NCBI GenBank assembly: GCA_025774555.1
Contig: JALGVT010000005.1
Location: 382-64,381, forward strand
DNA from: a candidate division LCP-89 bacterium
GTDB taxonomy: Bacteria > Electryoneota > B3-LCP
Length of the DNA: 64,000 nucleotides
Direction of reading: 5' to 3'
Shown: positions 13,846 to 33,985 of the stretch, one piece after another
Numbering within the stretch: the first letter of the stretch is position 1
How the letters are laid out: every line of letters begins with the position of its first letter
Translations under genes and position numbers: made by a program
Notes under the pieces: generated by a model
What the model saw: only the letters and a program-made list of their open reading frames with translations
Database searches by the model: none
Told to the model about the DNA's origin: nothing

Positions 13846-15111
13846 ATGAATATTTCCTGGCTAAATTCCAATCCTCACATCAGTTCGTTCTTGGACAGGC
13901 ATATTTCTTCTGCTCGTGTCCTCGGCGGTTCTGCTGAAAGCGAGGAGGAATTTAAGTCGAGCATTCGAGACAGCAGGAATGCAGGAACGTTTCGCGGCAT
14001 AAACAGTTTCTTTGCAAGCCCATTTGAAATTAGTAAATTAAACAATTTCAAGGGAATGAAGGAAAACGTTCATAACAAACAGTTAAAACCGCCGTTTGCG
14101 CCGCCTTCTGAAAAATTACTTCATGCCAGATCAGATAGTGTTGAGAAGAAACTCGAGGTCACAAGCCGGATCAGAGAGGAAGATCAGGTTCTTCTCACTA
14201 AAAACAAGTCGTTGGCGGAATTAATAAGTAATGATACTGAACTGCGGGATGCATTCATCAATGGTGACTATGCAGACGTTAAGGAGAAGTTGTCCTTAGC
14301 TGCAAAGGAGAAACTTGGCTGGAATCCGAACATCACACAGAAATTCCTTGAAGAGCACCCTGATGAAGCAGCCATAATCACAGCAGATTTGGGCAATGTG
14401 TCGAACTTGTTGTCTGAAAAGGATTTGGCAGATGCGCTGACAAGCGATGTTCTTGACAGGTTGGAGAACGAGGTATTTGGGCGGCTTTCTGAAAAAGCTG
14501 CTAATCTTTTTTCCGATGCTCCGAAATTGAATGAAGAATTCTTCAATGAAAATCCCAAAGCTGCTTTATATCTGTTGAAACATCCTGAAGAGATAAATCG
14601 ATTAGACTCAAATCGAATTGCTCAGGACGAATTTCACGATCACGTCGCGCTATATGAAAATCTGGTAGATCCGGTGGCTGAAGCAAAGAAATTGGCGGAC
14701 GGAAACGTTGCATTGGGTAATGATTTCTGGGATGGTAATCCCGAGCTATCGCTGATAATGATGGCTGAAAGGGCAGTTGATTTAAGTAGCGAAATGCAGA
14801 AGAGCGCACTCGATTTTCCGAAGGAGAATTACGAAAAGAGCACACTGTATGAACTTCTTTCTCACGATCAAGCAAAAAGAGCCAAAAAGCTGCTGGGTGA
14901 TAATTCAACGCTCAGCTTAAGTTTTCTTGAAGAGCATAGCGGTTTTTCACGTTTGCTAAATGAAGATCCCGATTTTGCTGAGACATTAAATGAGGATTCA
15001 GGTGTTTCTGAACTATTTCAAGACAATGACAGCAAGACAGCTCGCATATTACGATCGTATGTTTCTGGACTACCAGGCAGAGATCGTTCTTCCTGGCACT
15101 GGTGGGCTTGA
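13846..15111 (+). CDS. Hypothetical acidic protein with internal F-x-E-E-H-P / F-x-N-E-N-P repeats
   Basis: Long ORF. The ORF-track start at 13840 is a GTG; the ATG at 13846 is preferred. Asp/Glu-rich. Repeated motifs FLEEHPDEAA, FFNENPKAALYLLKHPEE, FWDGNPELSL, FLEEHSGF. No match to a family I recognise. Confidence 0.5.
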   Translation: MNISWLNSNPHISSFLDRHISSARVLGGSAESEEEFKSSIRDSRNAGTFRGINSFFASPFEISKLNNFKGMKENVHNKQLKPPFAPPSEKLLHARSDSVEKKLEVTSRIREEDQVLLTKNKSLAELISNDTELRDAFINGDYADVKEKLSLAAKEKLGWNPNITQKFLEEHPDEAAIITADLGNVSNLLSEKDLADALTSDVLDRLENEVFGRLSEKAANLFSDAPKLNEEFFNENPKAALYLLKHPEEINRLDSNRIAQDEFHDHVALYENLVDPVAEAKKLADGNVALGNDFWDGNPELSLIMMAERAVDLSSEMQKSALDFPKENYEKSTLYELLSHDQAKRAKKLLGDNSTLSLSFLEEHSGFSRLLNEDPDFAETLNEDSGVSELFQDNDSKTARILRSYVSGLPGRDRSSWHWWA

Positions 15112-16304: not shown

Positions 16305-17444
16305 TTGTTAGACCCGATAAGCCTCTACGTTCACGTTCCGTTCTGTCAACGGCGCTGTCCTTACTGTGCTTTCTATTCAGTTGAAAGCGCCCGCGAAGAG
16401 GAAATCACAAGCTACCCGCGTCTACTCCTTAAAGAATTGCAATTGATAAAGGAGTCCTGGCGCGGGTCTTCAATTGGGACTATATACTTCGGTGGCGGAA
16501 CGCCCTCAATTCTGCCGCCCAGCCTGGTAGAGAGTGTAATTAGCGCAGCTAAAGAAGCATTTCAGTTTGAAGATGATATAGAAGTGACTCTGGAATGCAA
16601 TCCGGGCACAGTCGATGCTGGCAAGATTGAAGCCTTCATATCTGCGGGAATCAATCGTCTGAGTATCGGCATTCAAGCGCTCAATGATGATAGACTTGGA
16701 TTTCTGGGACGGATTCATGATATGAATCAAGCAGTGGAGACGTTGAAAATAGCGACTGAAGCAGCTGGAGTCGATGTTTCAGCAGATCTCATGGCAGGTA
16801 CGCCTCTGGATACCAGAGAGAGCTGGTATAGAGAACTAGAAAAGCTCTTACCGTTTCGTCCCGATTCATTGTCCTTTTACAGTTTAACCGTCGAAGAAGG
16901 CACAGATCTGGCGTTACGATTAGAAAAAAACGAGAAAATATGCCTTGGATCAGACGAAGTAGTTGATCTGATGATGTATATCGGAGATCGATTGGCAGAC
17001 GCAGGATACCGTCACTACGAAGTGTCAAACTGGGCTTTGCCCGGACATGAATGCCGCCATAATTTGCATTATTGGCGGCGCGGAAGATATATCGGTTTAG
17101 GTCCATCGGCACACTCATTCGATGGAAAACGGCGCAGTTGGAATAAGCCGGATGTTACAAGCTATAGAGAAGCGCTGAATAATGGGAATCTCCCGCCGTC
17201 TGAATATGAAGTCTTGAGTGATGCAGAGGTGATGTCCGAGTGGGTTTATTTAGCGCTGCGAGTCGCTGATGGGCTTGATTTTGGAGAGTATCAGGAAATG
17301 TTCGGAGAAGTACCCTCGAGTTGGAAATCGTTACTTGAGAAAACTGCTGCATCAGGATACGGCGATTTCGATGGAGTGAGATTTAAACCAAACGACAGGG
17401 GTTTGCTGTTAGCGGATGAAATATCGGCGAGGATACTTGGATAG
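16305..17444 (+). CDS. hemW: Radical SAM heme chaperone HemW (HemN-like, oxygen-independent coproporphyrinogen III oxidase family)
   Basis: N-terminal radical SAM motif HVPFCQRRCPYCAFY (CxxxCxxC), GGGTPS motif, HemN C-terminal domain. Confidence 0.85.
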   Translation: MLDPISLYVHVPFCQRRCPYCAFYSVESAREEEITSYPRLLLKELQLIKESWRGSSIGTIYFGGGTPSILPPSLVESVISAAKEAFQFEDDIEVTLECNPGTVDAGKIEAFISAGINRLSIGIQALNDDRLGFLGRIHDMNQAVETLKIATEAAGVDVSADLMAGTPLDTRESWYRELEKLLPFRPDSLSFYSLTVEEGTDLALRLEKNEKICLGSDEVVDLMMYIGDRLADAGYRHYEVSNWALPGHECRHNLHYWRRGRYIGLGPSAHSFDGKRRSWNKPDVTSYREALNNGNLPPSEYEVLSDAEVMSEWVYLALRVADGLDFGEYQEMFGEVPSSWKSLLEKTAASGYGDFDGVRFKPNDRGLLLADEISARILG

Positions 17445-17447
17445 AAA

Positions 17448-17478
17448 AGGCAGGCGCTTACGCCTGCCTTTTCTGTTT
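17448..17478. terminator. Bidirectional rho-independent terminator between the convergent hemW and TPR-SLH genes
   Basis: AAAAGGCAGGCG-CTTA-CGCCTGCCTTTTCTGTTT: 9-bp GC-rich stem, A-tract on the 5' side and T-tract on the 3' side. Confidence 0.75.
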
Positions 17479-17493
17479 AAACTCTATTTTAGC

Positions 17494-18693
17494 TTACCAT
17501 TTCAGGGCGTTCATGATATCACGAACAAACAGCAGAGCATCCGGACCTGAGACATTTTCAGATGGTCGAAAATATCCCGTCATTTTATCCAGATCCATGA
17601 TATTGCGCTCGACAGCGAGCATGGCAGCGCCATAGAACGGATGATCGGTTCGCATGTCGCGAATATGCGACTCTTTTTCGCCTATATATTTTGAGAAGAT
17701 ACTTTCGTCGCGCGTTACCATGTAGATAAGTCGCTGCACCGCGCCGGCGAATTCGATTCTGGTTACAGGGTCATCCGGATAGTATTTATGATCCTGAGCT
17801 ATTTCGAAAATACCGGTGGCTACGAAATCACGTATCATTGATTCCGCCCAGTGACCGTCTATATCGAGAATTTCATTTCGATCTGGACCAGTTGCAGACG
17901 TCTGGAATTCAAGAGGATCCTCAGCCTTGAATGACAGGTCAGGAGCAGTGCTCCCGGCTTCGCGCCTCTCAATTCTTTCCACGACGTTCAATTCTTCAAT
18001 GAACAGGACAGCCATGTCTGCGCGGTTGATTTCATCGACGAGAGCAATTTTCTTACCCCACTTCGTGCCAGGTTGAGCCCGCACGATCTTGTGGACGCTC
18101 TCCATGGCTTCACCAGCTTTTTCAGACCATAAGCCGTTGATGTCGATGGCATTTCTAAGCATATCCTCTGAGCTTCTGAAACTGAAAGCCTGTTTGTATG
18201 CCAGACCCATGTAGTAATATGCTTCATCGCTGCGCGGATCGATCTTCAATGCTTTGCTCAAGCCTTTTTCACAATCCTTGATCCAGTTATCATCTTTCTG
18301 CATAATCGCATAGCAACGGATGTATGCAATCCAGACGCGGATATCTGAATCATCCAATCCCTTGGCATCGCCCAGGTGATCTTCAGCGCTTTTAAAATAT
18401 TCTTTCCGTATCTTGGATTTCGGATCTTTTATCTCTGATCCCAGTGCCGCATAGACCATACTCAAACCCGCATGAGCTGGAGCGAAATCCTTGTCGAGCA
18501 GCAGGGCATCTTTAAAGCGTGCTTCAGCCGCATCTAGATCGCCCGCATCGAACTTGCGAATACCCTGGTTGTAATGCGATTCGGGTGTATCCAGCAGCCC
18601 TTCTGCGGCACGTTGTTTAGGTCCGCAGCCGTTTATACAGAAAACTGCCGCGATAAAGGTTATCGTTAAAATAACGGGAATTATTCTTTTCAT
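17494..18693 (-). CDS. Lipoprotein with N-terminal TPR repeats and C-terminal SLH-like (S-layer homology) domains
   Basis: Start at the Met with GGAGGA upstream (MKRIIPVILTITFIAAVFCINGCGPKQ: lipobox with Cys). TPR region. The C-terminus matches the SLH pattern (..ILDIDGHWAESMIRDFVATGIFE..DPVTRIEFAGAVQRLI..). Confidence 0.6.
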   Translation of the reverse strand: MKRIIPVILTITFIAAVFCINGCGPKQRAAEGLLDTPESHYNQGIRKFDAGDLDAAEARFKDALLLDKDFAPAHAGLSMVYAALGSEIKDPKSKIRKEYFKSAEDHLGDAKGLDDSDIRVWIAYIRCYAIMQKDDNWIKDCEKGLSKALKIDPRSDEAYYYMGLAYKQAFSFRSSEDMLRNAIDINGLWSEKAGEAMESVHKIVRAQPGTKWGKKIALVDEINRADMAVLFIEELNVVERIERREAGSTAPDLSFKAEDPLEFQTSATGPDRNEILDIDGHWAESMIRDFVATGIFEIAQDHKYYPDDPVTRIEFAGAVQRLIYMVTRDESIFSKYIGEKESHIRDMRTDHPFYGAAMLAVERNIMDLDKMTGYFRPSENVSGPDALLFVRDIMNALKW

Positions 18694-18740
18694 ATACTCC
18701 TCCAATTGCAAATAAGCAATTAATTAAGCAGAATTACGGT

Positions 18741-19547
18741 TTAGTCGAGGATGACGATGACGCGGCATTTCTGCAGGAAGTTCAGGTTCTCCTTCATGCT
18801 GTGCAGAAGTTCAGCATCCTGATTGGAAATGACGACGTCGGCGCGATTCGGTCCTTCTGACTTTAATCCTTTCACAACCAGAGGTTTATCGGTGACTCTG
18901 TCATTCTTTGCCGCGGCTTCCATATCCTTTTCATAGCCGATCATACCGTATTGAATAGCCCACTCTTTGCTGACATAACTTGAACCGTACACTTCTTGAC
19001 CATCTTCATTCAGAACTCGTGGCGAAAGCGCAGGTCGGGCTCCCAAACCGGTTGCATCTATGATAAGACCGGTATAGACAACTCCTGATATAGCCGAAGA
19101 GAGTGGCTGTGCTCCCCCCATTTTCGCAGGCAAAACAGCTTCAAGGAAAGGACCATCAAGACTCATCTCAATGGTTACTTCGATTGAACCGTCATCGTAA
19201 TATCTTGGATCACCCACCTGCCGGAAATTCTGAGCAATCCCTTCAACTCTGGTCCGCACTACGTCACTTGACAACATTGAGTTTTTGACAGTGGTTTCAG
19301 ACGACATGGCGATACCTTGGATGACCTCAAGCATGTTTCGTAATGCGTCCATTTTAGCCGCACGAATAATGCCGGCTCTACCTCCAGGTCCGCCCGGCGC
19401 ACCGATTCCAGTGGCAGAGATCGTACGCTGAGTAAAATCTACAGATCCATTCATACCAATCTGTTGAACTACACCTTGTGCCAATCCGATCGTTGTCCAG
19501 AGCAGTAGTAATAAACAAACAGATGCTGCAACGGTGGATATGCGCAT
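18741..19547 (-). CDS. Periplasmic LPP20/FlgP-like family protein
   Basis: Start at MRISTVAASVCLLLLLW (AAGGAGG upstream). Motif ..ISATGIGAPGGPGGRAGIIRAAKMDALRNMLEVIQGI.. resembles the LPP20 lipoprotein family. Confidence 0.45.
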   Translation of the reverse strand: MRISTVAASVCLLLLLWTTIGLAQGVVQQIGMNGSVDFTQRTISATGIGAPGGPGGRAGIIRAAKMDALRNMLEVIQGIAMSSETTVKNSMLSSDVVRTRVEGIAQNFRQVGDPRYYDDGSIEVTIEMSLDGPFLEAVLPAKMGGAQPLSSAISGVVYTGLIIDATGLGARPALSPRVLNEDGQEVYGSSYVSKEWAIQYGMIGYEKDMEAAAKNDRVTDKPLVVKGLKSEGPNRADVVISNQDAELLHSMKENLNFLQKCRVIVILD

Positions 19548-19701
19548 AAGTACCTCCTTATGCATTTTATTTTTATTTTAGTATCAAACTCTAAACGGCG
19601 AAATGAGCTAAGATTAACCCATTTCGAAGTACTCTAAGAAATTTAATCCGTACTGCTGATTAATTCAAGTGAAAAGAGCGCTATTTTCAGCGATGTGTCT
19701 G

Positions 19702-20562
19702 CTATTTCTGATCGACCGCCTTGTCCTTTTCCAAGTTCCAGCGAACCCATTCAGTCTGTTCATCGGGATCTTCAGCTGAGAAGTCACCTGATGACAGCAG
19801 TTGACCTTTGCTGTCTATCCTGATCTCCTGCATGTTCTTTATAATATAGTACCACACCTCGAAGGTAACCCGCCGTGGTCCCTGGATCTGCTGGGGACCC
19901 TGAATCTGCTTAATATGAGGCAGTTCCTGAGGAACAAGCTCCTTTATATCGGCAGTATTTGTGATTTTTACCTCACCTTTATAGACCTTGAGAACAGTGG
20001 AGGAATCATCACCTACACTGATACGAAAACGCGTCCCGGTGATGGCTGCGCCAGCGACTGGTGTATTAACGTCAAAAGAGACCTCCTCTTTTTCTTCAGA
20101 CACCATTGCCCAGATATCACCCTTTACTACGTCTATTTGAGTTTCATCGAGTCCCTCTTTGGTCTCTTCATATAATTTGACTATGTCGATGGTCGTTAAT
20201 GGCGCCATGCGGATAATGTTTAGTTCTTTCAGGGTGAGTTCCGCACGTGATTCTCGAAGGGTGCGCACTTTGTCACCGCTGATAATTTCAGAACCTAAAA
20301 CTGCGCTCATCCAATTATCAGATGTCACCGGTAGTTTTCTGGCTCGCCCGTCCAGTTCCGTAACCTTTCCACGGTGATGAATATCCTCATCCTGAACGTC
20401 TGCGAAAAGCTCCTCGTCCGCCTTTACTCCAACATGCAGAAAAACTACAAGATTGCACAGAAATAGAAAAGCTATTACACGGTTGCGTCTCAGTAATCCG
20501 CTTCTTTTTACAGGCATCGCTTGTGCCTCCCGAATTATAGGTTCTATTTTCTTAAACCACAA
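19702..20562 (-). CDS. Membrane-anchored FecR-domain protein
   Basis: One N-terminal TM helix (VIAFLFLCNLVVFLHV). Periplasmic region with FecR-like pattern (..VKGDIWAMV..FDVNTPVAGAAITGTRFRISVGDDSSTVLKVYKGEVKI..). Confidence 0.5.
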   Translation of the reverse strand: MWFKKIEPIIREAQAMPVKRSGLLRRNRVIAFLFLCNLVVFLHVGVKADEELFADVQDEDIHHRGKVTELDGRARKLPVTSDNWMSAVLGSEIISGDKVRTLRESRAELTLKELNIIRMAPLTTIDIVKLYEETKEGLDETQIDVVKGDIWAMVSEEKEEVSFDVNTPVAGAAITGTRFRISVGDDSSTVLKVYKGEVKITNTADIKELVPQELPHIKQIQGPQQIQGPRRVTFEVWYYIIKNMQEIRIDSKGQLLSSGDFSAEDPDEQTEWVRWNLEKDKAVDQK

Positions 20563-20607: not shown

Positions 20608-23600
20608 TCAATTAATATGAGATGCACCGGTTAGATTTCCCGTCGGTTCACCTGTCAGGATAAATGCAGCCCAATAAGAGGGATGCGCGTTAATGCGGTC
20701 ACGTATATGCCGTTGTGCACTCTGCATGGATTCTGCAGGAGAAAGCCCAGCCCTCAAGTTTCGATAGAACCGCTTGACGAGCACAGCCGTGGCGAGATCG
20801 TCAACTTTCCAGAGAGAGGAAAAGACGCGCGGAGCTCCCGCATAAATAAACGCCCGGTTAAATCCTATAATCTCTTCGCCGCCCGATATCCCTCCTAATC
20901 CGCTTTCACAAGCAGAAAGAAGAACTAAAGAGCAGTGATCGAGGTGAAGATCGAAAATTTCAAACATCTCAAGCCGCCCGTCCTGTTCATCATCCGGCGC
21001 TAAGAAAAGACTTGAAAATGTTGGATTCTTTGAATTGAACTCACCGTGACAGGCTAAATGAACCACGCTTGCGCTGTCGCTGAAATTCACAAGTTTGGAT
21101 TCCTTTGCCTGTTCACCAAGATAGATATTCACATCTTTATAGACATATTTGATTGCGCTAACTTCTTTTTCACCGAAAAACAGACTCTCCAGCGGCAGAC
21201 CTGTGTCAGGATTACCAAGCGCTAGAATTTTACCAATTTCATTATGAGATCTTTCTTCAACTCTGTTTCTACAGAATGAAAATATATTTGCTGAAGGCAC
21301 ATAATTGAGAGTGAAGTGGTCTATTATATAGCTGCCATCCGGTTCAATCAACAAGGCAAAAGGAAGATAGAAGAGAGAACTTGTCGGCGCTATGATCAGG
21401 TGACTTTTATCATTCAGACGTTTCACAATAGGCGCTATCAATATTCTATATAGTCTTATACATTCTTCTTGAACAGAGAGTTTCTTCTTCAATCTCATAC
21501 GCAGATTTTCAACCATAGTCTTCAGAGAATCACCTTTAATAGCAACTTTTGCAGCTTTTATCCCTTCACGATCCAGCGTGAATATCACTAATGCCTCATC
21601 TAACAGGTAGTACTCAAGCAGTATTTCCTCGTTTTTCAACATCGTTTGGATCTGCGTCGAAGGCGCTGGAGTAACAGAGGTAATGTCTCTGTAACCGGGA
21701 TGACTGTTCTCTATCCGTTCGAGCAGGTAGCGGTAATCATTCTCTAATGAATCGATTATTGTAGTATAGTTGGCAAAAAGCGCGTCCTCTTCCGGTGTTC
21801 TGACGGCGCCTTTCGTTTTGAGATATTCTACTTCTTTGCGAATTCCTGCCAATTTCGTGGATATAGCATTTACTTTATCCTGCATTTCGACTGAAAGCCC
21901 GGCGCTGTGGTCGATGCTGCGATTCTGAATCATATCTAAAAAGGTTCGAGAGCGCGATCTTTCCACAACATCGAGAGCGCCAAATGTATTATCCTCATTT
22001 AAAAGAATGCTGACAGCCAGCCTGTACACCTGACCTTTATTCTCCATGAAGCCGGTCTGCAAACCCTCTACGGCGATAGAAGCACGCGTTTTCTCAATCT
22101 GCTCCATGGCGCTGTAAAGAGATACCAATGCTTCTTCGTTTTTTCTATTTTTTATGAATGCTTCAGCACGTGCCAGCTCAATGCGCCATAAGAGGTCTTC
22201 TATGTTATTGTCTTCTGCTATTCTTCTAGCGAGATATAAATTGGAAATCGCCTCTTTAATAGCGCCATTAGCTATTTCAATAAGCCCCATTCCGAGAAAA
22301 GTTCTCGCGTGTATTCTTTGATCGGTAACCTGCGGAAGGATGTTTTTAACAGTTTTAAGCGCTTTCCTGGCTGAGTCTGCCTGATCTGTTTGAATATACG
22401 CATTGCCGAGATTAAGCAGTGAATACGCCATGCCGCGTATTGAATTAAGCTCTTTATCGATTTTATATGTCCGCCTGAAACGGATAATTGCCTTATCAAC
22501 CTCGCCGGATGAGAGTTCTATAAGACCTATGTTCTTTTCAATCTGCGATCTGCTCCTGTAATCACCTGTGGTGATAGCTCCTTCTAATGCGTGCTTGGCT
22601 TTTTTCAATGCCCTCTCGGCGTCTCCTAAGCTCAGATAAATAAGAGCTTCCGTATTTTCCGCAAGATAGACGTATTGATTTAATCCGAGTTCTGAGAATT
22701 GCTCACTCGCGATACGTATTCTGTCAAGTCCTTCCTGAAATCTTCCCTGTTTCCAGTAAAGTCCAGCGATATACTGATGCGACAGAGCAGTCGTCAAAGA
22801 ATTCTCCTGACCTTCAAGTTCAATCGCCTTACTCTGCATTCTTAGTGAGTTTTCATAGTCTGTCATGCCTTCGTAAGCTAAACCAAGGTGCTGATACAAT
22901 TCTGGCGGTATTGCTAGAGCATGTCCTGACGCTTCTTCCAGATTAGGAATATTATCAAGAATATCCTCGAGGAAACGGGAAGCCTTATAATAATCCTCCC
23001 TTATCAGCATCAGACGACAAAGATAGACACTGCTTATAATATAGGGTTCATATTCACCCCAGTCATAATATAGGTCCCGCGCTCTGGATATAGCAGTTTC
23101 AGCAGCATTATAATCTTTAAGTTTCTCATGGTATGTCGCAGTTATCTGGTCGTCAGAAGCCGCCCGCAATTCGTCTCCACGAACAATTGCCATACTGCGA
23201 GCCTTTGCACGCGCACCAATTGCGTTTGCAGTGCTGTCTAGGTTGTAGTAATATACCGAAAGGTTGCGGTATCCAGTCTCGACCAATTTCAGGTCTCTTT
23301 CTGCCCCGGCAATATCTATCAATATAGTCTGTGATTCGATAGCTTTTCCCCAAAAAGAAGCGCCGCGTGCCGCCTTGATTCGGAGCAGATGCAGTTTTTT
23401 GATGGAAGCCGCATCTTCTGTCTCTTCAGCCATGGCAAGCGCTGAATTATAGTACCGCAAAGCCCACTCGGCATCACCTTTCTGTAAATTATAGTTGCCC
23501 TTGAGAACGGTTGATGTGAAGTTCTGTTCTACGAATTCCTGTCGCTGAAAATGATCTAATCCACCGCTCCCATAATATTTAAAGCCAGAGAGTGCTTCAT

Positions 23601-26600
23601 CTAAAAATGAATCATTAGATTCCAGAGCGTCTAAAGCGTTATAATAAGCCTCTCCTGGAGAATTCGTAACCTTCTCTTCTATAAACACTTCGATGAAATG
23701 TTCGAGGTGGTCATCAGTGATATTCTCCGGTAAAATAATAATACTTGATACGCCTGTATAGAGCAAGCTCCTGATTAGAACTGTTTCGTCATAGATACTG
23801 CCCTTGATAAACAGTACATCTGCATTCGTGCTGATATTAAACAGTTCTGAAATCGGTATCTGTAAGTTGTTATCTTCATAGATAAGCTGGTCTAAGGGAT
23901 TGGAGACATTGTTTTTATCAATTGTAAGGTATATCATCCCCGCGTTCTCTATCGCGTCGATAAAATCCTCGCGGCTTTGTATTTCTATCTTATCAAATTG
24001 CGAAAGTTGCTCCTGATTCACTACATTTATGCGCTTACCTTGCCCGATTGATTGTTTCCCATTTAAAAAGACAATACTTTGAATGTCTGGAAGCATGTAT
24101 AGAGGTGTTTGATCACTGCCAACGGACTTGAGCCAGATACTTTGGACGGGGAGTTTAGACCATTCACCGGGCAGTATTAAGAATACCCTTTCACAATCCT
24201 GAAATCTTGATTGCTTTGATGCAAATACAGCTTGCAGTATATCTTCCGGGCTGCCATGTAGTCTGAGGCTGTCAACGTCCAGAGTGCGGTCATCCAATTG
24301 GATTAGATAGAGTTGTTTCACAGCCGACGTTATTTGCAATAGCAGATCACCAGACTGCAGGCAATTCATAATAGTATCTGGATCAAACGTAGGCATAGAA
24401 AACAATGATGCAAATTCCGGATCTTCTGTCGTTACTTTCTGCATGGTAGAGAGATATTCATCTTCTATATCGCTTAATTGCTCCCGTGCTTCTTCAAGCT
24501 CATCAATATCAGGTTTGGTTTCGGATTCAAATAGCGCTACTTGCTGTCTTGATTTGTTCAGTTTTCTGCGTAAGTAAGGAATGACGCCTCCGCCTCTGCC
24601 CCAAATAAACTTGCGGCGCTCGAATTTGACTGGGAACATACGGCTGCGTATCGCAGAAATCAATGTAAGGTTAGACCGTTGCTGCGCAATTTCGAGGACA
24701 CGTACTTTGTCCCCGACATTGAAAGCGTTGACAAGCGCTGATTCGAACATTATATTGGCTTCGATATCGGATTGAGTAATTGCGCCAGTTTCATCTTTGT
24801 TGGGCGGACGGTTTGACCAAGCGTCGATAGCCAGATCAAACCATTCATCGGCTGAATGAGATCCCACGATCAAGCTGATATCATTCGATAAGGACGTCCG
24901 TAATTGCGTGCTGCAAGATGTTATTCTGCCCAACCTCCAGAAAACACGCCACAAATATCTGATGTCGCCGATCCGTTCGGCTGTCCTCATCCCTTCAACT
25001 AATACTTTAGCGCTTTCTGAATAATCCTGCAAAGTGTATAGAAAATCTGATAGATCCAGACTAAGCAAAATCTCATCAGCAGGATGATTGAGACGTCTTG
25101 ATTCGTTTATACCGCTCTCAAAAACCCAGATTGCTTCAGCCTGGAGGTCGATTATTCTGAACAGGTCGATTTCGCTTGATTCGGGAACGTTGTTAGATGC
25201 CTTCAGGCATAATCTGCCATAAAGTCGATAGAGCCTAAGACGCTCATTAGTAAATCCGATTTTATCTGGACCGAACTTATCTATCTCCATTTTCAGCAGG
25301 GTTAGAAGCGTTTCGGCGTTAAAGGGTTGGTCATGATCTAATATCAGCAGACTGCTTAATAACTTCTGATCAGGGATTTCCGCATCATCGTCAAGTGGAT
25401 CAAGAGACTGATAAAAACGGCGTTGTATCGAATTTTTGAGGTCAGCTACGTCTGAAACATTTTCTGTTCGATTGACTGCTTCGATAATAAAAACCCAGAT
25501 ATCATCAGGATAACCGATGTTATAATGCTTAAACCATGTCATCTCGTCAGTTATATCAGCCTTGTTTATGGCATCTGAGGATGAACGCGAGAGTTCTAAG
25601 GAGGCTATGTTCAGCAGCGCTGAAAGCTGTCCTGATCTATATCCGTGACGATGACAGAGATCGTATGATCTGATAAAACATCGTTTAGATTTGACTAAAC
25701 GATGATTATTCCAGAAATAATTCCCTAATATATTCCAGAGGATAGCCTCTCCTTCGGGATCATCTCTGTTGATGGTGATCGCAAGACGCTCTGATGCTTC
25801 CTGTATAGCTTTGGTTGGATCCTTAGAACGATAATAGACGTCCTCTGCAATAGAGTGATTAAGAAGAATCTCATCCTTTTGAGTGAGACCTATCGCTGAC
25901 ATAGGAGAACCCGTGCCTAAATAACCGAAGTTCATAATTGGTATCGGAATGCCCAATATTTCAAGCACAAGTGGATTATAAAATTCAACTGTTGGAATAT
26001 CTGCGTTATCGGGAAGAGATTCTAATGCGTTGTCGGTTAAAAGCAGAGCATTCTCATCGTCCCCCATGTTTAACGCATTCAGCGCCATGTTTTCAAGCCA
26101 CAGACTCTGCGGGACATTCAGTCCTTCACGATCTGCTAATATCTGCGCCTGCCGGTAATATGAATTAGACAACTCCTCGTCCCTAATGACTTGATGTAAT
26201 TCAGCCAGTCGCAACAGGACGCGTAGTTCACCTTGAATCTGTTTGAGGTTGTGATAAAGTTCGAGTGATCGGCTGTAACTCGCCAATGCAATGTCGTTCT
26301 TGCCTATAATCGAGGCAGCCTGACCCATCTTCTCGCGTATATTAGCTTCCTGCTGTAATGAAGTAAAACTCGAGTCCCATTTTATCTTCGCGATGTAAGC
26401 GGTCAGCGAACGATGATAACCGAATTCACCCAGATTGAAATAATTGTTACCGAGGTTCAGATACAGTAAAGCCTCAAGTTCTGGATTTGTAGTCTCGTCA
26501 TTTATTGAGATGCCGAGTTGAAGCGCTTCGATTGCTTTCTCATAGCCCTGGAATGGGGGAGAAGCGCCTCTGAAGGTTAGTAATCTTCCCATGCTGTTCA

Positions 26601-29043
26601 CAGCCGAGCTCAAATTATGAACTATTTTCTTGAAGAAATTACCAGCAGTTTTCGATTGACTACTATTACGCTTTTCTTGCAATTCATAATTGTAGCTCAA
26701 AGTAGTATAGCCGTAAACCAGGTCTGATTCCAATGCAATCGCCGATTGAATAAGCTCGTTAGACTCGATAATATCAGCGGAGTTACCTTCTCCAGAATAA
26801 GATAGACACAAACCGAGAGCGTACATATTGGCTGCATTATCCGGCTCTTTCTCAAGCAGTTCCCGGTATTCTTGAGTTACCTCCTTTAGGTGGTTTAGAG
26901 ACATTGCGGAGGCAATTCTGCCGCGGTGCAATCTGACGTCATTGGGTGAGAGTCTCAGCGCTTTTCTAAAATTAACTTCAGCCAGTTCCCAATCGGATTG
27001 GTGAAGCAACTGTTCTGCCCGCTCAGTCAGCATCGATATTCTCAGCAGCCGAGCTTTGCGAACGTAATAGCTGTTCTTGAGGTCTTTAAAGAGGGCTTCT
27101 ACCTCTTCGAGGTGATTTTGAGCCAGGAGGTTCTCACCCATCTGATTTTCAAGTTCGGCTGACTCTATTAATGATTCCGCATAAAGAGACCTGATATACG
27201 AGTGTGGGTGCCTGATAGCATATCCTCGAATCCTTTCCCATTCGCTGAGAGCGATCTCTGTTTCGCCGCGTTCAGCAAAGATATCAGCGATTTTCTTCTG
27301 AGCTGCGGCTCCAAGCGCAGGGATTTCGGGATATCTTACGATGATGTTCTGCAACCCAGCTAAGGGATCATCACTTCCGACCTGTAGAGCAACAACATTC
27401 TCAATCGCTTTTTCCGTCGGAATTATGTTGTCTGAGAAATCTTTGATTTCTCGCAGGTAAGTATCCAATGCTTCACTTTTACTTCCGAAGCTGAAGTAAA
27501 TTGAAGCTATTCTCAACAGTGATTCAGCGGCATAATCACCTATTAAAACATAATCTGCCACTATTTGGTTATAAATATCAAGCGCCTGTTCAATATTGCC
27601 GGTTTGTTCGTGGTTTGCCGCAATCAAAAACAGGGCGCGAGCGGAAGACTCTGGATATTGTCCGGAATGATCGAAAATAGTTGTCAGGTTTGATATTAAT
27701 GAAGATGGATTTTCGCAGACGAACTTGCCATCATATTGAAAGGAACCGCTATGCACCTGAATCTGGTAATCTATTCGAGCTTGATTTATTACGGCAGTCT
27801 GTTCATCATATTGACGCGGAAGCCTCTTTAGAAAAGTAAGGGCACGCGAACCTTCGCCTGATTTATTCAATAACCTGGCTGATTCGAGCATCGATTTTGC
27901 GCCAAGCTCGCGCGCTTGAGGATGGTCAATTCTGACTCTTTCAAACGCTAATAGTGTCGCCAATAACTCTTCCCGCAATAACGGGCGTCCAATGATTTCT
28001 GCCTCCCTACCTATCGAAAGAGCGAAATTGAAACATGCCTCCGCTGTAGGTGCTCGTGGGACAGGACCCTCTGCAGGACCTTTCCATAAATCCATGCTGC
28101 CGCTTTTGTCGCTTGCGTGGTAAATATTGCCATCGCTCGCCCAGCAGGAATACGTCTCTGAGGCGTCACCAAGTGAGATAGCCCGCGCCACCGTGTTTGA
28201 ATCCACCTGGTTAAAACGGTAGAGAAACTGACCATCTATCGGTGTCAACAGTCCATCAAGATTTAGGTCTCTGTTGACTAAAACGGCACAGAAAGAATTT
28301 CCTGATGGAGACCAGCAGGGAGAAGAGGCAGGGAAAGAGCTTTCATAGACGATTTCCCATTTAGGCTGCGGTTCCTTCAAATCCTCTAAATGTAGAAGGC
28401 AGATATCACCACCGTAATCCTCAGCGGGGACCTTTATACAGATAATGTCATTATTAACAGGTGAAAAATCGGGTTGGATAAACCCATGTGGAGTCAGGAA
28501 TGTGCTTTTCTTCTTTGACAGGTTGAGCAGTTTTATTCTGCCCTGCACGCCTGCGCCATCTTGATACGCGATATATTTACCATTTTTAGAGAATGAGGGA
28601 TTGCTCTGATGTCCTGCTTCGTGGATAACAGTTTTTACGCGCAAAGCGCGCGGGGATTCATTTCGTAAGGTTATATTCAGTATGTAAAGATCGCCCTCAG
28701 GATCATCGCGCATAGACACAAAACAGATACGCTTTCCATCAGGAGACCATTCGGGATTGAAATCATCTGCAGGATGAGAAGTCAGCGGGACAGGCACACC
28801 TCCGCCTGTTTTGCGAATCCAGATGTCATAGTTGTCATTGCGGGTTGAAGCGTAGAGCAGCCAATTCCCATCAGGCGATATCGCGGGATCAATTTCAGAT
28901 CCCAAGTCGGCTGTTAAGGGTTGAGAATAGTGTATCGCAAGGGATTTGGGTATTCTGTTAGCTGGCTGAGGTTCCGCCTGTATTTGAGGTAATAATCCGC
29001 TGAGGATGAATAATACTGCCGTTATAGGCAAATAGCGGTGCAT
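20608..29043 (-). CDS. Giant secreted protein (2811 aa): signal peptide, TolB-like PD40 beta-propeller, very long TPR-repeat region, C-terminal CHAT (caspase-like) protease domain
   Basis: Uninterrupted 8.4-kb ORF. Signal peptide MHRYLPITAVLFILSGLLPQIQA. PD40 repeats (SPDGNWLLYASTRNDNYDIWI, SPDGKRICFVSMRDDPEGDLYIL). Dozens of TPR-like helices. CHAT hallmarks near the C-terminus (..SHLIIAPTSSLFYLPFALL.., VVHLACHGEF, LVLLSACESG, VDDLATAVLVKRFY). Confidence 0.85.
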   Translation of the reverse strand: MHRYLPITAVLFILSGLLPQIQAEPQPANRIPKSLAIHYSQPLTADLGSEIDPAISPDGNWLLYASTRNDNYDIWIRKTGGGVPVPLTSHPADDFNPEWSPDGKRICFVSMRDDPEGDLYILNITLRNESPRALRVKTVIHEAGHQSNPSFSKNGKYIAYQDGAGVQGRIKLLNLSKKKSTFLTPHGFIQPDFSPVNNDIICIKVPAEDYGGDICLLHLEDLKEPQPKWEIVYESSFPASSPCWSPSGNSFCAVLVNRDLNLDGLLTPIDGQFLYRFNQVDSNTVARAISLGDASETYSCWASDGNIYHASDKSGSMDLWKGPAEGPVPRAPTAEACFNFALSIGREAEIIGRPLLREELLATLLAFERVRIDHPQARELGAKSMLESARLLNKSGEGSRALTFLKRLPRQYDEQTAVINQARIDYQIQVHSGSFQYDGKFVCENPSSLISNLTTIFDHSGQYPESSARALFLIAANHEQTGNIEQALDIYNQIVADYVLIGDYAAESLLRIASIYFSFGSKSEALDTYLREIKDFSDNIIPTEKAIENVVALQVGSDDPLAGLQNIIVRYPEIPALGAAAQKKIADIFAERGETEIALSEWERIRGYAIRHPHSYIRSLYAESLIESAELENQMGENLLAQNHLEEVEALFKDLKNSYYVRKARLLRISMLTERAEQLLHQSDWELAEVNFRKALRLSPNDVRLHRGRIASAMSLNHLKEVTQEYRELLEKEPDNAANMYALGLCLSYSGEGNSADIIESNELIQSAIALESDLVYGYTTLSYNYELQEKRNSSQSKTAGNFFKKIVHNLSSAVNSMGRLLTFRGASPPFQGYEKAIEALQLGISINDETTNPELEALLYLNLGNNYFNLGEFGYHRSLTAYIAKIKWDSSFTSLQQEANIREKMGQAASIIGKNDIALASYSRSLELYHNLKQIQGELRVLLRLAELHQVIRDEELSNSYYRQAQILADREGLNVPQSLWLENMALNALNMGDDENALLLTDNALESLPDNADIPTVEFYNPLVLEILGIPIPIMNFGYLGTGSPMSAIGLTQKDEILLNHSIAEDVYYRSKDPTKAIQEASERLAITINRDDPEGEAILWNILGNYFWNNHRLVKSKRCFIRSYDLCHRHGYRSGQLSALLNIASLELSRSSSDAINKADITDEMTWFKHYNIGYPDDIWVFIIEAVNRTENVSDVADLKNSIQRRFYQSLDPLDDDAEIPDQKLLSSLLILDHDQPFNAETLLTLLKMEIDKFGPDKIGFTNERLRLYRLYGRLCLKASNNVPESSEIDLFRIIDLQAEAIWVFESGINESRRLNHPADEILLSLDLSDFLYTLQDYSESAKVLVEGMRTAERIGDIRYLWRVFWRLGRITSCSTQLRTSLSNDISLIVGSHSADEWFDLAIDAWSNRPPNKDETGAITQSDIEANIMFESALVNAFNVGDKVRVLEIAQQRSNLTLISAIRSRMFPVKFERRKFIWGRGGGVIPYLRRKLNKSRQQVALFESETKPDIDELEEAREQLSDIEDEYLSTMQKVTTEDPEFASLFSMPTFDPDTIMNCLQSGDLLLQITSAVKQLYLIQLDDRTLDVDSLRLHGSPEDILQAVFASKQSRFQDCERVFLILPGEWSKLPVQSIWLKSVGSDQTPLYMLPDIQSIVFLNGKQSIGQGKRINVVNQEQLSQFDKIEIQSREDFIDAIENAGMIYLTIDKNNVSNPLDQLIYEDNNLQIPISELFNISTNADVLFIKGSIYDETVLIRSLLYTGVSSIIILPENITDDHLEHFIEVFIEEKVTNSPGEAYYNALDALESNDSFLDEALSGFKYYGSGGLDHFQRQEFVEQNFTSTVLKGNYNLQKGDAEWALRYYNSALAMAEETEDAASIKKLHLLRIKAARGASFWGKAIESQTILIDIAGAERDLKLVETGYRNLSVYYYNLDSTANAIGARAKARSMAIVRGDELRAASDDQITATYHEKLKDYNAAETAISRARDLYYDWGEYEPYIISSVYLCRLMLIREDYYKASRFLEDILDNIPNLEEASGHALAIPPELYQHLGLAYEGMTDYENSLRMQSKAIELEGQENSLTTALSHQYIAGLYWKQGRFQEGLDRIRIASEQFSELGLNQYVYLAENTEALIYLSLGDAERALKKAKHALEGAITTGDYRSRSQIEKNIGLIELSSGEVDKAIIRFRRTYKIDKELNSIRGMAYSLLNLGNAYIQTDQADSARKALKTVKNILPQVTDQRIHARTFLGMGLIEIANGAIKEAISNLYLARRIAEDNNIEDLLWRIELARAEAFIKNRKNEEALVSLYSAMEQIEKTRASIAVEGLQTGFMENKGQVYRLAVSILLNEDNTFGALDVVERSRSRTFLDMIQNRSIDHSAGLSVEMQDKVNAISTKLAGIRKEVEYLKTKGAVRTPEEDALFANYTTIIDSLENDYRYLLERIENSHPGYRDITSVTPAPSTQIQTMLKNEEILLEYYLLDEALVIFTLDREGIKAAKVAIKGDSLKTMVENLRMRLKKKLSVQEECIRLYRILIAPIVKRLNDKSHLIIAPTSSLFYLPFALLIEPDGSYIIDHFTLNYVPSANIFSFCRNRVEERSHNEIGKILALGNPDTGLPLESLFFGEKEVSAIKYVYKDVNIYLGEQAKESKLVNFSDSASVVHLACHGEFNSKNPTFSSLFLAPDDEQDGRLEMFEIFDLHLDHCSLVLLSACESGLGGISGGEEIIGFNRAFIYAGAPRVFSSLWKVDDLATAVLVKRFYRNLRAGLSPAESMQSAQRHIRDRINAHPSYWAAFILTGEPTGNLTGASHIN

Positions 29044-29057: not shown

Positions 29058-29609
29058 TCACTTGTTAATCCAACTGCCATCTTCTTTTTGGATCATGCTG
29101 CCGGGTGGTGAAGCGTCCCTGTTCATTTGCGCGAAAACTCTGGCGATTGCATCTGGATCCATAGGATTGACTGCCGAGTTGATCTCAACGATCCTGCGCA
29201 TGATGATCTCGCGGTCTCTATTCTCTTCGACGATGATCTTATTGACAAGTTCGCTGTACTCGAAATCTTCGTTATATCTGGATGTCGGAAGGATCGTCAG
29301 CAATCCTTCAATGTTCTCTCCAGTAACGCCGTCTTTTTTAAAATCTTCTATGTCATCAGCGTTGAACTTCCTATTCGCGAAAGCTTCCAGAACAATGCGT
29401 CTGCTTTCAGGGATAGTAATATCCGGCGATGAAGTCGAGCGGGCTGATGATATCATCCAGGCATCTTCTTCGATGGTGCGATAGGTACCCAAAATCTGCT
29501 TTTCAATTGCAGTTCTTTCGCTGGTGAAGGATACTTCAGGGGTTTTAATGGTGCAGCTAATCAAAAGAAGGAGGCTCACTATACCTGCCATAATGCGTAG
29601 ATGAATCAT
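29058..29609 (-). CDS. Small lipoprotein, DUF1318 (YdbL)-like
   Basis: Lipoprotein signal (IVSLLLLISCTIK). The C-terminal ..PGSMIQKEDGSWINK matches the DUF1318 terminal motif. Overlaps the folD stop by 4 bp. Confidence 0.45.
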   Translation of the reverse strand: MIHLRIMAGIVSLLLLISCTIKTPEVSFTSERTAIEKQILGTYRTIEEDAWMISSARSTSSPDITIPESRRIVLEAFANRKFNADDIEDFKKDGVTGENIEGLLTILPTSRYNEDFEYSELVNKIIVEENRDREIIMRRIVEINSAVNPMDPDAIARVFAQMNRDASPPGSMIQKEDGSWINK

Positions 29610-30502
29610 TGTATAATACCTGCTTTTCGTTTTGCTGCTATTAGTGTGTTCTTCAATAGCATGGCAATAGTCATCGGTCCCACTCCGCCGGGTACAGGGG
29701 TTATCGCAGAAGCGATCTTGCAGGCGGAATCGAAGTGAACGTCTCCCACGAGGCGGTAGCCTCGCTTATCCTCCGATTCGGGAACATTGACGCGATTGAC
29801 TCCAACATCTATGACGATACACCCCGGTTTTAACTGATCACCGTGGATGAATTCGGGAGAACCGATGGCTGCAACTACAATATCAGCCTGGCGTAGAAAT
29901 TGCGAAATATCACGCGTCCTCGAATGACATAGCGTAACCGTTGCATTGCCACCCTCACTTTTACGCGACAGGAGAGTTGCCAGAGGGCGTCCCACGATAT
30001 TACTCCTACCGACGATGACAACGTGTTTCCCAGATGGATCTATATCGCTTCTACGCATTAATTCTATCACACCGGCTGGTGTACATGGCATGAAAGACTC
30101 GCGACCCGAAGTCAGGCTGCCGACGTTATATGGCGTAAAGCAATCCACGTCCTTTACCGGATCGACGGATTCAATAATTTCCACTTCATTCAGGTGTCCG
30201 GGTAGAGGCAGTTGAATGAGAAAACCGTGTATGTCCGGGTTGACGTTGAATCTATTAACAAGGTCAAGCAGCTCTTCCTGTGTCGTTTCAGTGGGACGTC
30301 TTTCAGTCAGCGAATAGAAACCAACTCGTTCGCACGCTTTTCCTTTCATGCGCACATAGGTCTGCGATGCAGGATCATCTCCGACAAGAATGAATCCGAG
30401 GCCCGGGGTGATGCCTTTTTTTTGTAATTGAGCCGTTTCCTCTGCTATTTCGTTTTTAATTAGATCAGAAACTGCCTTACCATCTATAATCTTCGCTGAC
30501 AT
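29606..30502 (-). CDS. folD: Bifunctional methylenetetrahydrofolate dehydrogenase / methenyl-THF cyclohydrolase
   Basis: MSAKIIDGKAVSD..LGFILVGDDPASQTYVRMKGKACERVGF..., NAD(P)-binding GRSNIVGRP, conserved PGGVGPMT. Confidence 0.9.
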   Translation of the reverse strand: MSAKIIDGKAVSDLIKNEIAEETAQLQKKGITPGLGFILVGDDPASQTYVRMKGKACERVGFYSLTERRPTETTQEELLDLVNRFNVNPDIHGFLIQLPLPGHLNEVEIIESVDPVKDVDCFTPYNVGSLTSGRESFMPCTPAGVIELMRRSDIDPSGKHVVIVGRSNIVGRPLATLLSRKSEGGNATVTLCHSRTRDISQFLRQADIVVAAIGSPEFIHGDQLKPGCIVIDVGVNRVNVPESEDKRGYRLVGDVHFDSACKIASAITPVPGGVGPMTIAMLLKNTLIAAKRKAGIIQ

Positions 30503-32069: not shown

Positions 32070-32936
32070 TTACCGCCCTGTTCGCGGGGTTTCGAGGTAT
32101 TTGAACAGAGGTGAATCCGAACTGATAACAAGTGAAGTGCCCTCTTTCAAAGACTTATTATACAGTTCCAGGCTGCGAAGAAACGCGTAAAACTCGGGGT
32201 CCTTGTTGAAGGCATTGGCGTATATTTTGATTGATTTTGCGTCGCCTTCGCCGCGGATTATTTCGCTTTTACGCTGAGCTTCAGCGATAATGATTGTCTT
32301 ATCCTTATCAGTTGTAGCTTTAATCTTCAACTGTTCCTCAGCTCCTTCACTGCGGTATCGCTTGGCAATTCTATGACGTTCAGCACGCATTCTGGCGTAA
32401 ATACTTTCCGCAATTTCAACCGGGAAATCGGTCCTCTTAATGCGGACGTCCACGATTTCAACGCCAAATTCCTTGCCTTTCTCTTTAGTAATTGCCTGAA
32501 CATCATTCATTATAGGTTCGCGTTTTTCGGTGATAATTTCTGATTGGTTGTGAGAAGCGACCGCTTCACGCAGTGCTGAAGAGATAATCGCGTCTAACCG
32601 CGCATTGGCTCTCGGCATGTCTCGCAAAGTTTCATAGAATACTCGCGGATCTACAATCTTATAACGTGAATACGCGTCAACCACGAGTGTTTTTTTGTCT
32701 TTGGTGAGGAATTCGGCGATCGGAGCGTCATAACGTAACAATCGTTTTTCGTAAGTCGTAATTGACTGTATGAACGGTAGTTTAGCGTGGAGTCCGGGAT
32801 TCCGAACCTCCTTAACGAAACGACCGAGTTGGATGATTATTATCTGCTTGGTTTCATCGACTGTATAGAAAGCATCAGTAACCAGGATGAATGCAACTAA
32901 AGCTGCGACGATGTATATCAGTGTCTTCTTTTTCAT
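32070..32936 (-). CDS. hflC: Protease modulator HflC (SPFH/band-7)
   Basis: N-terminal TM helix, SPFH domain. Follows hflK with an ATGA overlap. Confidence 0.8.
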   Translation of the reverse strand: MKKKTLIYIVAALVAFILVTDAFYTVDETKQIIIIQLGRFVKEVRNPGLHAKLPFIQSITTYEKRLLRYDAPIAEFLTKDKKTLVVDAYSRYKIVDPRVFYETLRDMPRANARLDAIISSALREAVASHNQSEIITEKREPIMNDVQAITKEKGKEFGVEIVDVRIKRTDFPVEIAESIYARMRAERHRIAKRYRSEGAEEQLKIKATTDKDKTIIIAEAQRKSEIIRGEGDAKSIKIYANAFNKDPEFYAFLRSLELYNKSLKEGTSLVISSDSPLFKYLETPRTGR

Positions 32937-33985
32937 GGCTGTCCTCCTTTTTGTGCATCGGCAAGAGGTATCGCTGAACCGAGATCACCCAGCGGTAGAA
33001 GAGGAAGAGTTTTCCCTGCAACTTCAGGTGAAATCACTATCTTATTTACTTTGGACAGGACCTCCTGCATCGTCTCGAGGTAGAGCCTGCGACGCGTTAC
33101 GTCTTTCGCCATTCGATATTCCTTCAGCATAGCAAGAAAGCGCGCTGCGTCACCCTGAGAGATTCTGATTTTGCTTTCCATGTATGCCTCTGCTTCGCGA
33201 AGCATCTGTTCAGCCTCACCGCGTGCTTTCGGAAGGATATCCTCTTTATAGGCTTCCGCTTCATTGATGATGCGTTCGCGATCTTCCTTGGCGCTGACAA
33301 CATCTTTAAAAGCGGCCTGTACCTGCTCAGGAGGATCGACTGCCTGGAGTTTTACGGCGGTAATCTGGAGACCGGTTTGATATAGATCCATCAGTTGCTG
33401 CAGGTGAACCCGTGTGTCTTCCTGTACCTTTGCTCTGCCTGTCGTGAGAATGTCATCTATCATCATGCTGCCAACAACGCCGCGCAGAGCCGTTTCTGCG
33501 GCATCTTTCAGCGTTCGTTGATCGGCGACGCCCTCCGGATCCCAGACCTTAAACAGATAATCCGGGAGATTGCTGATTCGGTACTGAACTACAACCCTGA
33601 TATTCACGAGGTTTTCATCGCCGGTGATCATAAGGGATTCTACCGGGTAAGATTTTATTCGGGGAGGAGGTCCCGGATGTATTGTCCGGAATCCCAGTTC
33701 CATACTCCGAATCTGTTCGACTTTGACAACGTCAACCTGCTCGAAAGGTCGAGGTATATGCCAGTGAGGGCCAGAATCCGCAGTAGAGGTCATCTTACCG
33801 AACCGTCGCACGACACCCATCTCGCCGGGATCAACAATGTATATTCCGGTTAACAGCCAGATGATGAAAATCGCGCCGACCAAGTAAAACAGCATTCGTC
33901 CGGTACCCTGACCGAGGAATTTCTCCTTCAATTGATTGAGAATATCCCCATCAAAAAGCTCCTCTATTGATTTGTCCATGGGCAA
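32933..33985 (-). CDS. hflK: Protease modulator HflK (SPFH/band-7)
   Basis: TM helix, SPFH domain (..VVRRFGKMTSTADSGPHWHIP..), C-terminal coiled coil. Operon with hflC. Confidence 0.8.
   Translation of the reverse strand: MPMDKSIEELFDGDILNQLKEKFLGQGTGRMLFYLVGAIFIIWLLTGIYIVDPGEMGVVRRFGKMTSTADSGPHWHIPRPFEQVDVVKVEQIRSMELGFRTIHPGPPPRIKSYPVESLMITGDENLVNIRVVVQYRISNLPDYLFKVWDPEGVADQRTLKDAAETALRGVVGSMMIDDILTTGRAKVQEDTRVHLQQLMDLYQTGLQITAVKLQAVDPPEQVQAAFKDVVSAKEDRERIINEAEAYKEDILPKARGEAEQMLREAEAYMESKIRISQGDAARFLAMLKEYRMAKDVTRRRLYLETMQEVLSKVNKIVISPEVAGKTLPLLPLGDLGSAIPLADAQKGGQP

Follow-up and report, generated by a model that had tools for sequence, protein, structure and literature searches.

In a 64,000-nucleotide (nt) stretch of contig JALGVT010000005.1 from a candidate division LCP-89 bacterium, referred to here as the window and used for all position numbers, the minus strand carries a giant gene together with the operon to which it belongs. 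The gene is a single uninterrupted open reading frame (ORF) of 2811 codons in the ORF list and the translation, in agreement with the initial annotation. Its sequence predicts a soluble periplasmic protein with a beta-propeller, three arrays of TPR-type solenoid that together span about 1500 residues, and two CHAT modules of the separase/craspase type (Table 1). The anatomy first read from the translation, namely a signal-like N-terminus, PD40 repeats and a C-terminal CHAT domain with a His/Cys dyad, holds in these parts; a second, dyad-less CHAT module in the middle of the protein had been overlooked.

Table 1 Features of the window, with strand and basis of assignment (aa, amino acids; T9SS, type IX secretion system)
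Feature	Position	Strand	Basis
Giant gene, whole: predicted exported PD40 / TPR / pseudo-CHAT / TPR / CHAT protein	20608..29043	-	ORF list, translation, full-length orthologues
Giant, residues 1-23: predicted Sec-type signal peptide	28975..29043	-	Hydropathy, relatives
Giant, residues 41-323: PD40 beta-propeller	28075..28923	-	PF07676, PDB sequence matches, blade profile
Giant, residues 340-1140: first TPR-like array	25624..28026	-	Pfam TPR, hhalign
Giant, residues 1141-1299: stretch without TPR similarity	25147..25623	-	hhalign, Pfam
Giant, residues 1300-1490: TPR-like segment before pseudo-CHAT	24574..25146	-	hhalign probability 96%
Giant, residues ~1492-1830: pseudo-CHAT module	23554..24570	-	hhalign, AlphaFold, Foldseek
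Giant, residues 1850-2340: second TPR array	22024..23496	-	PF13424, hhalign
Giant, residues ~2395-2803: active-type CHAT module (Pfam core 2528-2799)	20635..21861	-	PF12770, AlphaFold, Foldseek
His2666 codon, presumed catalytic, in ACHGE	21046..21048	-	Translation, alignment
Cys2712 codon, presumed catalytic, in SACES	20908..20910	-	Translation, alignment
folD	29606..30502	-	Pfam; stop overlaps DUF1318 start
DUF1318 (YdbL-like) lipoprotein, 183 aa, lipobox LLISC	29058..29609	-	PF07027; ends 14 nt before giant
Exported FecR-domain protein	19702..20562	-	PF04773, E 4e-13; likely start MPVKRS
Exported LPP20-like protein, 274 aa, signal peptide	18741..19565	-	PF02169, 23.3 bits, just under cut-off 25.9
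TPR + SLH lipoprotein, lipobox INGC, last of run	17494..18711	-	SLH 32.6 bits vs cut-off 20.8; TPR_11
Bidirectional terminator hairpin with 20-bp stem	17437..17480	.	Terminator scan; closes minus-strand run
PorV-like gene	36943-37944		T9SS-related cluster
TonB-dependent receptor	40965-43628		T9SS-related cluster
Two S8 subtilases with Por_Secre_tail	43664-46333, 58859-61525		T9SS-related cluster
CARDB protein	46358-48058		T9SS-related cluster
Gingipain-like C25 peptidase, 1377 aa, propeptide + T9SS tail	48629-52762		T9SS-related cluster

The C-terminal CHAT module

The C-terminal module is a CHAT domain of clan CD by its family model, the positions of its dyad and its modelled alpha/beta fold. 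PF12770 matches residues 2528-2799 with 224.2 bits against a cut-off of 24 (E 3e-66), covering profile positions 4-289 of 289, and the translation contains the motifs VVHLACHGEF, with His2666, and LVLLSACESG, with Cys2712. In the AlphaFold model of residues 2340-2811 (predicted local distance difference test score, pLDDT, 85.5; predicted template modelling score, pTM, 0.80), each of these two residues lies just after a beta-strand, as in caspases. Foldseek searches of the PDB with this module return Csx29/craspase (4e-15), DdvA (1e-11), separase (3e-10), SAVED-CHAT and caspase-4/11, the separase match having a template modelling score of ~0.5 over the whole protease-domain chain 5FBY.

His2666 and Cys2712 align with H862 and C907 of DdvA (8ROT), the best match in a profile search of the PDB (E 2e-9), and also with the dyad residues of Csx29 in CHG and GACE. 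H862/C907 was identified as the catalytic dyad in the cryo-electron microscopy structure of DdvA (PMC11506125). The initial annotation had placed a CHAT domain with an intact His/Cys dyad at this end of the protein; the PF12770 match and the aligned dyad support it, and the fold that AlphaFold and Foldseek give for the C-terminus is caspase/separase-like, as that assignment demands.

A second CHAT module without the dyad

The middle of the protein contains another module with the CHAT fold, composed of a helical hairpin, a small beta subdomain and a caspase-like alpha/beta core. Using family profiles built from an alignment of 39 full-length relatives, we found that hhalign aligns residues 1480-1960 with residues 2330-2811 at a probability of 100% (E 6e-41); the alignment has 337 columns and takes in the entire module. 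A hidden Markov model made from either CHAT module also cross-matches the other, and one relative, P0017, has two precomputed Pfam CHAT matches with TPR_12 between them. The AlphaFold model of residues 1470-1900 (pLDDT 85.9, pTM 0.82) has Csx29 (9e-9), separase (9e-7) and DdvA (3e-5) as its top PDB matches in Foldseek. In the window protein, the module is visible to profile-profile comparison and structure prediction, not to BLASTP or Pfam: Pfam is empty across residues ~1140-1960, PF12770 misses the middle copy, and BLASTP, run pairwise with the middle region and the C-terminal CHAT, gives a non-significant, out-of-register match of 64 residues (E 0.009).

The catalytic positions of the middle module are replaced, with MIYLTIDKNN in place of HLACHG and VLFIKGSIY in place of LSACESG, and the His+Cys pair is absent from it in all 39 relatives. 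Since the module has the fold and the homology of CHAT but lacks the dyad throughout these relatives and is not recognised by Pfam, we classify it as a pseudo-CHAT and not as an active member.

TPR arrays

We mapped the TPR regions by aligning 160-residue blocks of the family with hhalign to a clear TPR block (residues 2040-2300). TPR-like signal is found in residues 340-1140, 1300-1490 and 1850-2340, with hhalign probabilities of 88-99.5% (to 100%). Pfam TPR matches fall at 470-540 and 670-810 within the first array, across which the hhalign probability is 88-99%, and the clearest TPR_12-type repeats form the array at 1850-2340 (PF13424, E 4e-20, three stretches; hhalign 99.5-100%). A continuous TPR array of about 1800 residues had been described for this region; because the pseudo-CHAT module (~340 residues) interrupts it, the array is not continuous, and it is broken again by the 160 residues of 1141-1299. 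These residues show no similarity to TPR (hhalign probability 0.3%) and match no Pfam family, and they form a conserved stretch of about 160 residues between two TPR arrays.

As in separase and craspase, a TPR superhelix lies directly N-terminal to CHAT in one polypeptide, with residues 1850-2340 followed by residues 2395-2803. The same order is present in the first half of the protein, where the TPR-like segment at 1300-1490 precedes the pseudo-CHAT.

Export and the N-terminal propeller

The N-terminus of the giant, MHRYLPITAVLFILSGLLPQIQA followed by EPQ, shows the n/h/c layout of a Sec signal: a basic n-region, then 16 hydrophobic residues as its core, and an I-Q-A site. Specifically, the predicted signal peptide divides into MHR / YLPITAVLFILSGLLP / QIQA, with cleavage predicted before EPQ, and the Kyte-Doolittle maximum for 12 residues is 2.59 at residues 7-18. 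A hydropathy scan along the giant reveals no second membrane-span-like segment; the only similarly hydrophobic windows elsewhere are a stretch around residue 1025 and short strands buried in the CHAT modules. Signal-like hydrophobic N-termini or lipoboxes are present in 44 of the 46 family members checked, with a lipobox in about ten, and this conservation argues for an extracytoplasmic, membrane-proximal location. The proposed export through an N-terminal Sec signal is thus supported by the N-termini of the relatives as well as by the predicted export of the operon neighbours. The giant carries no C-terminal T9SS sorting domain (Por_Secre_tail), whereas the window's own secreted peptidases (S8 and C25) do, which argues that the giant remains periplasmic.

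PD40 repeats had been placed at residues ~50-320, and we find them at residues 41-323 (PF07676, E 3.9e-25, N-terminal region). Five blades are recovered with a blade profile and one more (180-221) is discerned by eye only, so that the propeller is probably six-bladed, with limits at 43-83, 84-125, 136-178, 180-221, 229-282 and 285-323. For residues 1-340, the PDB sequences that match best are TolB propellers (E 1e-10), and TolB is also what residues 41-175 match best.

Family spread and retention of the dyad

To survey the family, one genome per species was scanned and the best 80 loci were examined. Relatives are present in at least 246 species genomes, and the best 80 loci come from KSB1, Calditrichota, LCP-89, Zhuqueibacterota, Desulfobacterota, Nitrospinota, Sumerlaeota, Planctomycetota and cultured Geobacterales, the last including Citrifermentans bremense R1 and Geomonas spp. 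The ORFs at the examined loci measure 2.6-2.87 thousand aa (kaa). Full-length orthologues at 39-48% identity are all 2.7-2.85 kaa long, the closest named one being from candidate division LCP-89, and many further relatives at 22-32% identity nearly all measure 2.6-2.9 kaa. Members from Leptospira have 2590 aa and are annotated as 'PD40 domain-containing' or 'TolB-like translocation protein', and two relatives (P0013 and P0017) have a weak Pfam Peptidase_C50 match. When 1.8 billion representatives are searched with the profile of the pseudo-CHAT, most of the proteins retrieved have the giant's size and are matched at the same middle position.

Of 79 giant ORFs, which come from different phyla, 73 retain both His and Cys of the dyad, a count that, like the family counts, is biased toward CHAT-conserving members by the retrieval of loci via the CHAT-domain motif. 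The motifs HxxCHG and LSACE/QTG are among the best conserved columns. Retention of the dyad across phyla indicates purifying selection, with catalysis selected in most lineages.

In open-access text, we found no description of this family, of a tandem of dead and live CHAT modules, or of a link between such proteins and AsmA-like/YdbL genes. Already known are TPR-CHAT proteases, with one periplasmic example (DdvA), and the individual domains, which are annotated in databases.

Gene neighbourhood

The gene order in the clade of the window runs from folD through DUF1318, the giant, FecR and LPP20-like to the TPR/SLH lipoprotein. By sequence, all envelope neighbours of the giant carry a signal peptide or a lipobox. 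The order folD-DUF1318-giant is shared by loci L001, L002 and L006, in which the LPP20-like and TPR/SLH genes are also conserved. The FecR/LPP20-like/TPR-SLH trio follows the giant in the LCP-89 clade and in some KSB1-like genomes only, and a search for a conserved downstream partner across more than 60 loci returned lineage-specific neighbours only.

Upstream, the lipoprotein of the window matches PF07027 with 36.5 bits against a cut-off of 27 over residues 84-183. Of 62 evaluable loci, 32, from several phyla, have a DUF1318 gene as the immediate upstream neighbour of the giant on the same strand, and 7 more have one within 3 kb. Directly upstream of DUF1318, an AsmA-like ORF is present in 29 of the 43 loci that hold DUF1318, including those of Geobacterales, Desulfobacterota, KSB1, Sumerlaeota and Leptospira; the one at L004 matches the Pfam models AsmA, YhdP and DUF748. 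In the clade of the window, folD occupies the position that the AsmA-like gene holds in other lineages. The DUF1318 proteins of family loci (the window, L004 and L005) are lipoproteins of 180-240 aa with an N-terminal extension of about 80 residues. This extension has no Pfam match at E<=1, leaving the idea of a fused YnbE unsupported, and a separate ynbE-like gene is absent from the interval between the AsmA-like gene and DUF1318.

YdbL, the DUF1318 protein of E. coli, modulates how the YdbH-YnbE intermembrane bridge is assembled; this bridge belongs to a set of three AsmA-like phospholipid transport systems that are redundant with one another, and the periplasmic protease DegP controls how much YdbL is present (PMC11126948, PMC13464000). 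The upstream pairing of DUF1318 with an AsmA-like gene in the family corresponds to the pairing of ydbH and ydbL. However, the E. coli operon contains no giant CHAT gene, E. coli YdbL has 108 aa and lacks the extension that the DUF1318 proteins of the family carry, and the AsmA-like neighbour, which is absent from this window, matches the models named above but not the YdbH model. An HtrA-like Trypsin-PDZ gene lies beside an aminotransferase gene within a few kb of the giant at L003 (2285-5578) and L005 (16877-19393), two very distant members (an unclassified metagenome-assembled genome and Leptospira santarosai). The arrangement may have arisen by chance or may mark a second conserved neighbour, and is of note given that DegP degrades YdbL in E. 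coli.

The minus-strand run is closed by a hairpin with a perfect 20-bp stem and T-runs on both strands. It sits where the HemN-like radical-SAM gene (16305-17444, +) and the TPR/SLH gene converge and is likely a bidirectional terminator. In a diderm with a T9SS, the TPR/SLH lipoprotein could tether the outer membrane to the cell wall. Upstream of a 4Fe-4S protein gene and folD are two overlapping SPFH/Band-7 genes (288 and 350 aa; 32070-33985, -). A T9SS-related cluster occupies positions 36943-52762 and 58859-61525 of the window, and its C25 peptidase is another clan-CD cysteine protease. Two ORFs have no Pfam match at E<=0.01, one of 1001 aa immediately upstream of the PorV-like gene (37941-40946, -) and one of 423 aa (13840-15111, +). 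A defence system was also considered as a candidate at the locus and rejected, PADLOC giving only a generic TPR match.

Discussion

We propose, at about even confidence, that the giant resides in the periplasm as a latent CHAT protease and scaffold, gated by a partner and linked to the biogenesis of the envelope, a function suggested by homology and synteny. Since separase and Csx29 are activated allosterically through their TPR parts, as has been proposed for DdvA (PMC11506125), the propeller and TPR arrays of the giant probably bind envelope partners or substrates. The pseudo-CHAT would probably regulate the live CHAT or pair with it, and the live CHAT would then cleave a periplasmic target. 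The most likely partner or substrate would be the DUF1318 protein or the AsmA-like protein. The order AsmA-like, DUF1318, giant in many phyla, together with the exported neighbours, points to biogenesis of the outer membrane or of intermembrane bridges.

Like the giant, separase (clan CD, C50) is a giant helical-repeat protein with a C-terminal caspase-like protease of matching fold, and it combines a pseudo-protease domain with an active one. By analogy with that pseudo-protease domain and with caspase dimers, the dead and live CHAT modules of the giant may pair. Separase differs in being eukaryotic and cytoplasmic/nuclear, in its control by securin and Cdk1, and in having its pseudo-domain immediately adjacent to the active one, whereas the giant is predicted to be exported and its dead and live modules are complete duplicates about 500 TPR residues apart.

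Several observations weigh against a role as a gated protease. The dyad is lost in the close relatives P0009, P0010 and L002 (Q/L; 39% identical to the window protein), and in L006 the His is replaced by Lys with the Cys kept (K/C). In the spirochaetal members P0044-P0056 (L005), both CHAT-like modules are recognisable but degenerate and without a dyad, P0044 for example having GIIHLYSKF and LLVASSGG at the motif positions. Members without the dyad keep their size, and those from Leptospira also keep the AsmA-like/DUF1318 synteny, indicating that proteolysis is not the sole conserved function. A DUF1318 neighbour is missing from 23 loci (all 13 of Nitrospinota and 10 others), and no AsmA-like gene was found anywhere in the 64-kb window. 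Moreover, synteny is guilt by association only, and the pairing of dead and live CHAT is something that we infer purely from the analogies above.

The losses of the dyad bear on the possibility that the giant is mainly a non-catalytic periplasmic scaffold or adaptor, in which the CHAT folds are structural and the dyad is a dispensable remnant or serves self-processing only. We regard this as possible, though doubtful. It would account for one CHAT module that is dead in all members, for the spirochaetal members in which both are dead while size and the Leptospira AsmA-like/DUF1318 neighbours are kept, and for the loss of His and/or Cys in P0009/P0010 and L006. A purely structural role is hard to reconcile, without catalytic selection, with a dyad kept in nearly all ORFs from distant phyla at only 25-50% overall identity, and the motifs flanking the dyad are among the best conserved columns.

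A more specific form of our proposal is that the family acts as a dedicated periplasmic regulator of AsmA-like bridges, docking via its propeller and TPR arrays to the bridge or to the YdbL-like lipoprotein and using an intramolecular dead/live CHAT pair to cleave the YdbL-like chaperone or a bridge protein according to the state of the envelope. We offer this as a speculative idea that is unlikely to hold. If true, it would be the first caspase-type protease in outer-membrane lipid homeostasis, and spirochaetes would have kept the scaffold role only.

It is improbable that the giant is a periplasmic anti-phage or conflict sensor-protease, like DdvA or the CHAT effectors of CRISPR type III-E, CBASS and gasdermin systems. 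Defence systems are the typical setting of TPR-CHAT proteins, and Csx29 and DdvA are the closest solved structures. Csx29, the TPR-CHAT protein of Craspase (type III-E CRISPR), is the top structural match of both CHAT modules and has TPR before CHAT as well as aligning CHG and ACE dyad motifs; however, it is cytoplasmic, has ~700 aa, is bound to Cas7-11 and is activated by target RNA. No cas genes are among the neighbours of the giant, and the Csx29 model NF041237 reaches 26.1 bits where its cut-off is 300. DdvA of Myxococcus xanthus (PDB 8ROT/8RW5), the only characterised periplasmic TPR-CHAT protein, shows that TPR-CHAT sensing in the periplasm is possible, and its dyad rests in an inactive geometry that is thought to need a signal (PMC11506125). 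Despite the aligned dyad and the fold match, DdvA is a single-pass transmembrane anti-sigma factor of 991 aa with a cytoplasmic zinc-binding domain and a partner extracytoplasmic function (ECF) sigma factor; it dimerises and regulates a CBASS-CRISPR island. The giant is nearly three times this length, soluble, predicted to be exported by a signal peptide, and has a PD40 propeller and a second, dead CHAT. Its 23-residue signal peptide is followed at once by PD40, the surrounding ORFs include no sigma-factor gene, and the neighbouring FecR-domain protein lacks, by its sequence, an anti-sigma N-domain. Among the neighbours are folD, envelope lipoproteins and HemN-like radical-SAM genes and no defence genes, and PADLOC adds only the generic TPR match. 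Unlike mobile, patchy defence islands, the size, the architecture and the AsmA-like/DUF1318 synteny of the family are stable across phyla.

We consider it very improbable that the giant is a TolB paralogue that docks to Pal or peptidoglycan within the Tol-Pal system, as the initial annotation had suggested in part. TolB is likewise a periplasmic PD40 beta-propeller and the top sequence match of the giant's N-terminal 340 residues, the Leptospira annotations name it, and in this clade the operon ends with a lipoprotein bearing the peptidoglycan-polymer-binding SLH domain. The TolB equivalog model TIGR02800, however, scores 65.7 bits against a cut-off of 343.15 and aligns only at profile positions 228-381 of 418, which are propeller blades. 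The N-terminal alpha/beta (TolA-binding) domain of TolB is absent from the giant, no tolQ/R/A, pal or cpoB is present among the neighbouring genes, and conservation of the SLH gene after the giant is limited to the LCP-89 clade. PD40 propellers are moreover generic and also occur in tricorn and DPP-IV-type peptidases. By sequence, the resemblance to TolB is thus at the level of repeat type only and the giant is not a TolB orthologue; in place of TolB-type partners, the conserved ones are the DUF1318/YdbL-like lipoprotein and, in other lineages, the AsmA-like protein.

Least probable of all is an extracellular or surface degradative protease exported past the outer membrane, which the predicted signal peptide and the secreted peptidases of the window (S8 twice, C25) might suggest, but the C-terminus is the CHAT domain itself with no Por_Secre_tail, CHAT enzymes are site-specific and regulated and not bulk degraders, and the lipobox variants among the relatives argue for a membrane-anchored periplasmic location.

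To our knowledge, bacterial CHAT/caspase-like proteases are known almost only as cytoplasmic defence effectors, and the single periplasmic example, DdvA, is still without a known signal or substrate. The family described here is a widespread, size-conserved and apparently housekeeping exported TPR-CHAT protein with a built-in pair of dead and live modules. It adjoins an AsmA-like and YdbL-like pair, which is central to the open question of how phospholipids travel to the outer membrane and how the bridges are regulated. Natural lineages without the dyad provide a ready-made separation of scaffold from protease function, and members in cultivable, tractable or medically relevant bacteria (Citrifermentans bremense, Geomonas and Leptospira) make the proposed link between the giant and the bridges directly testable.

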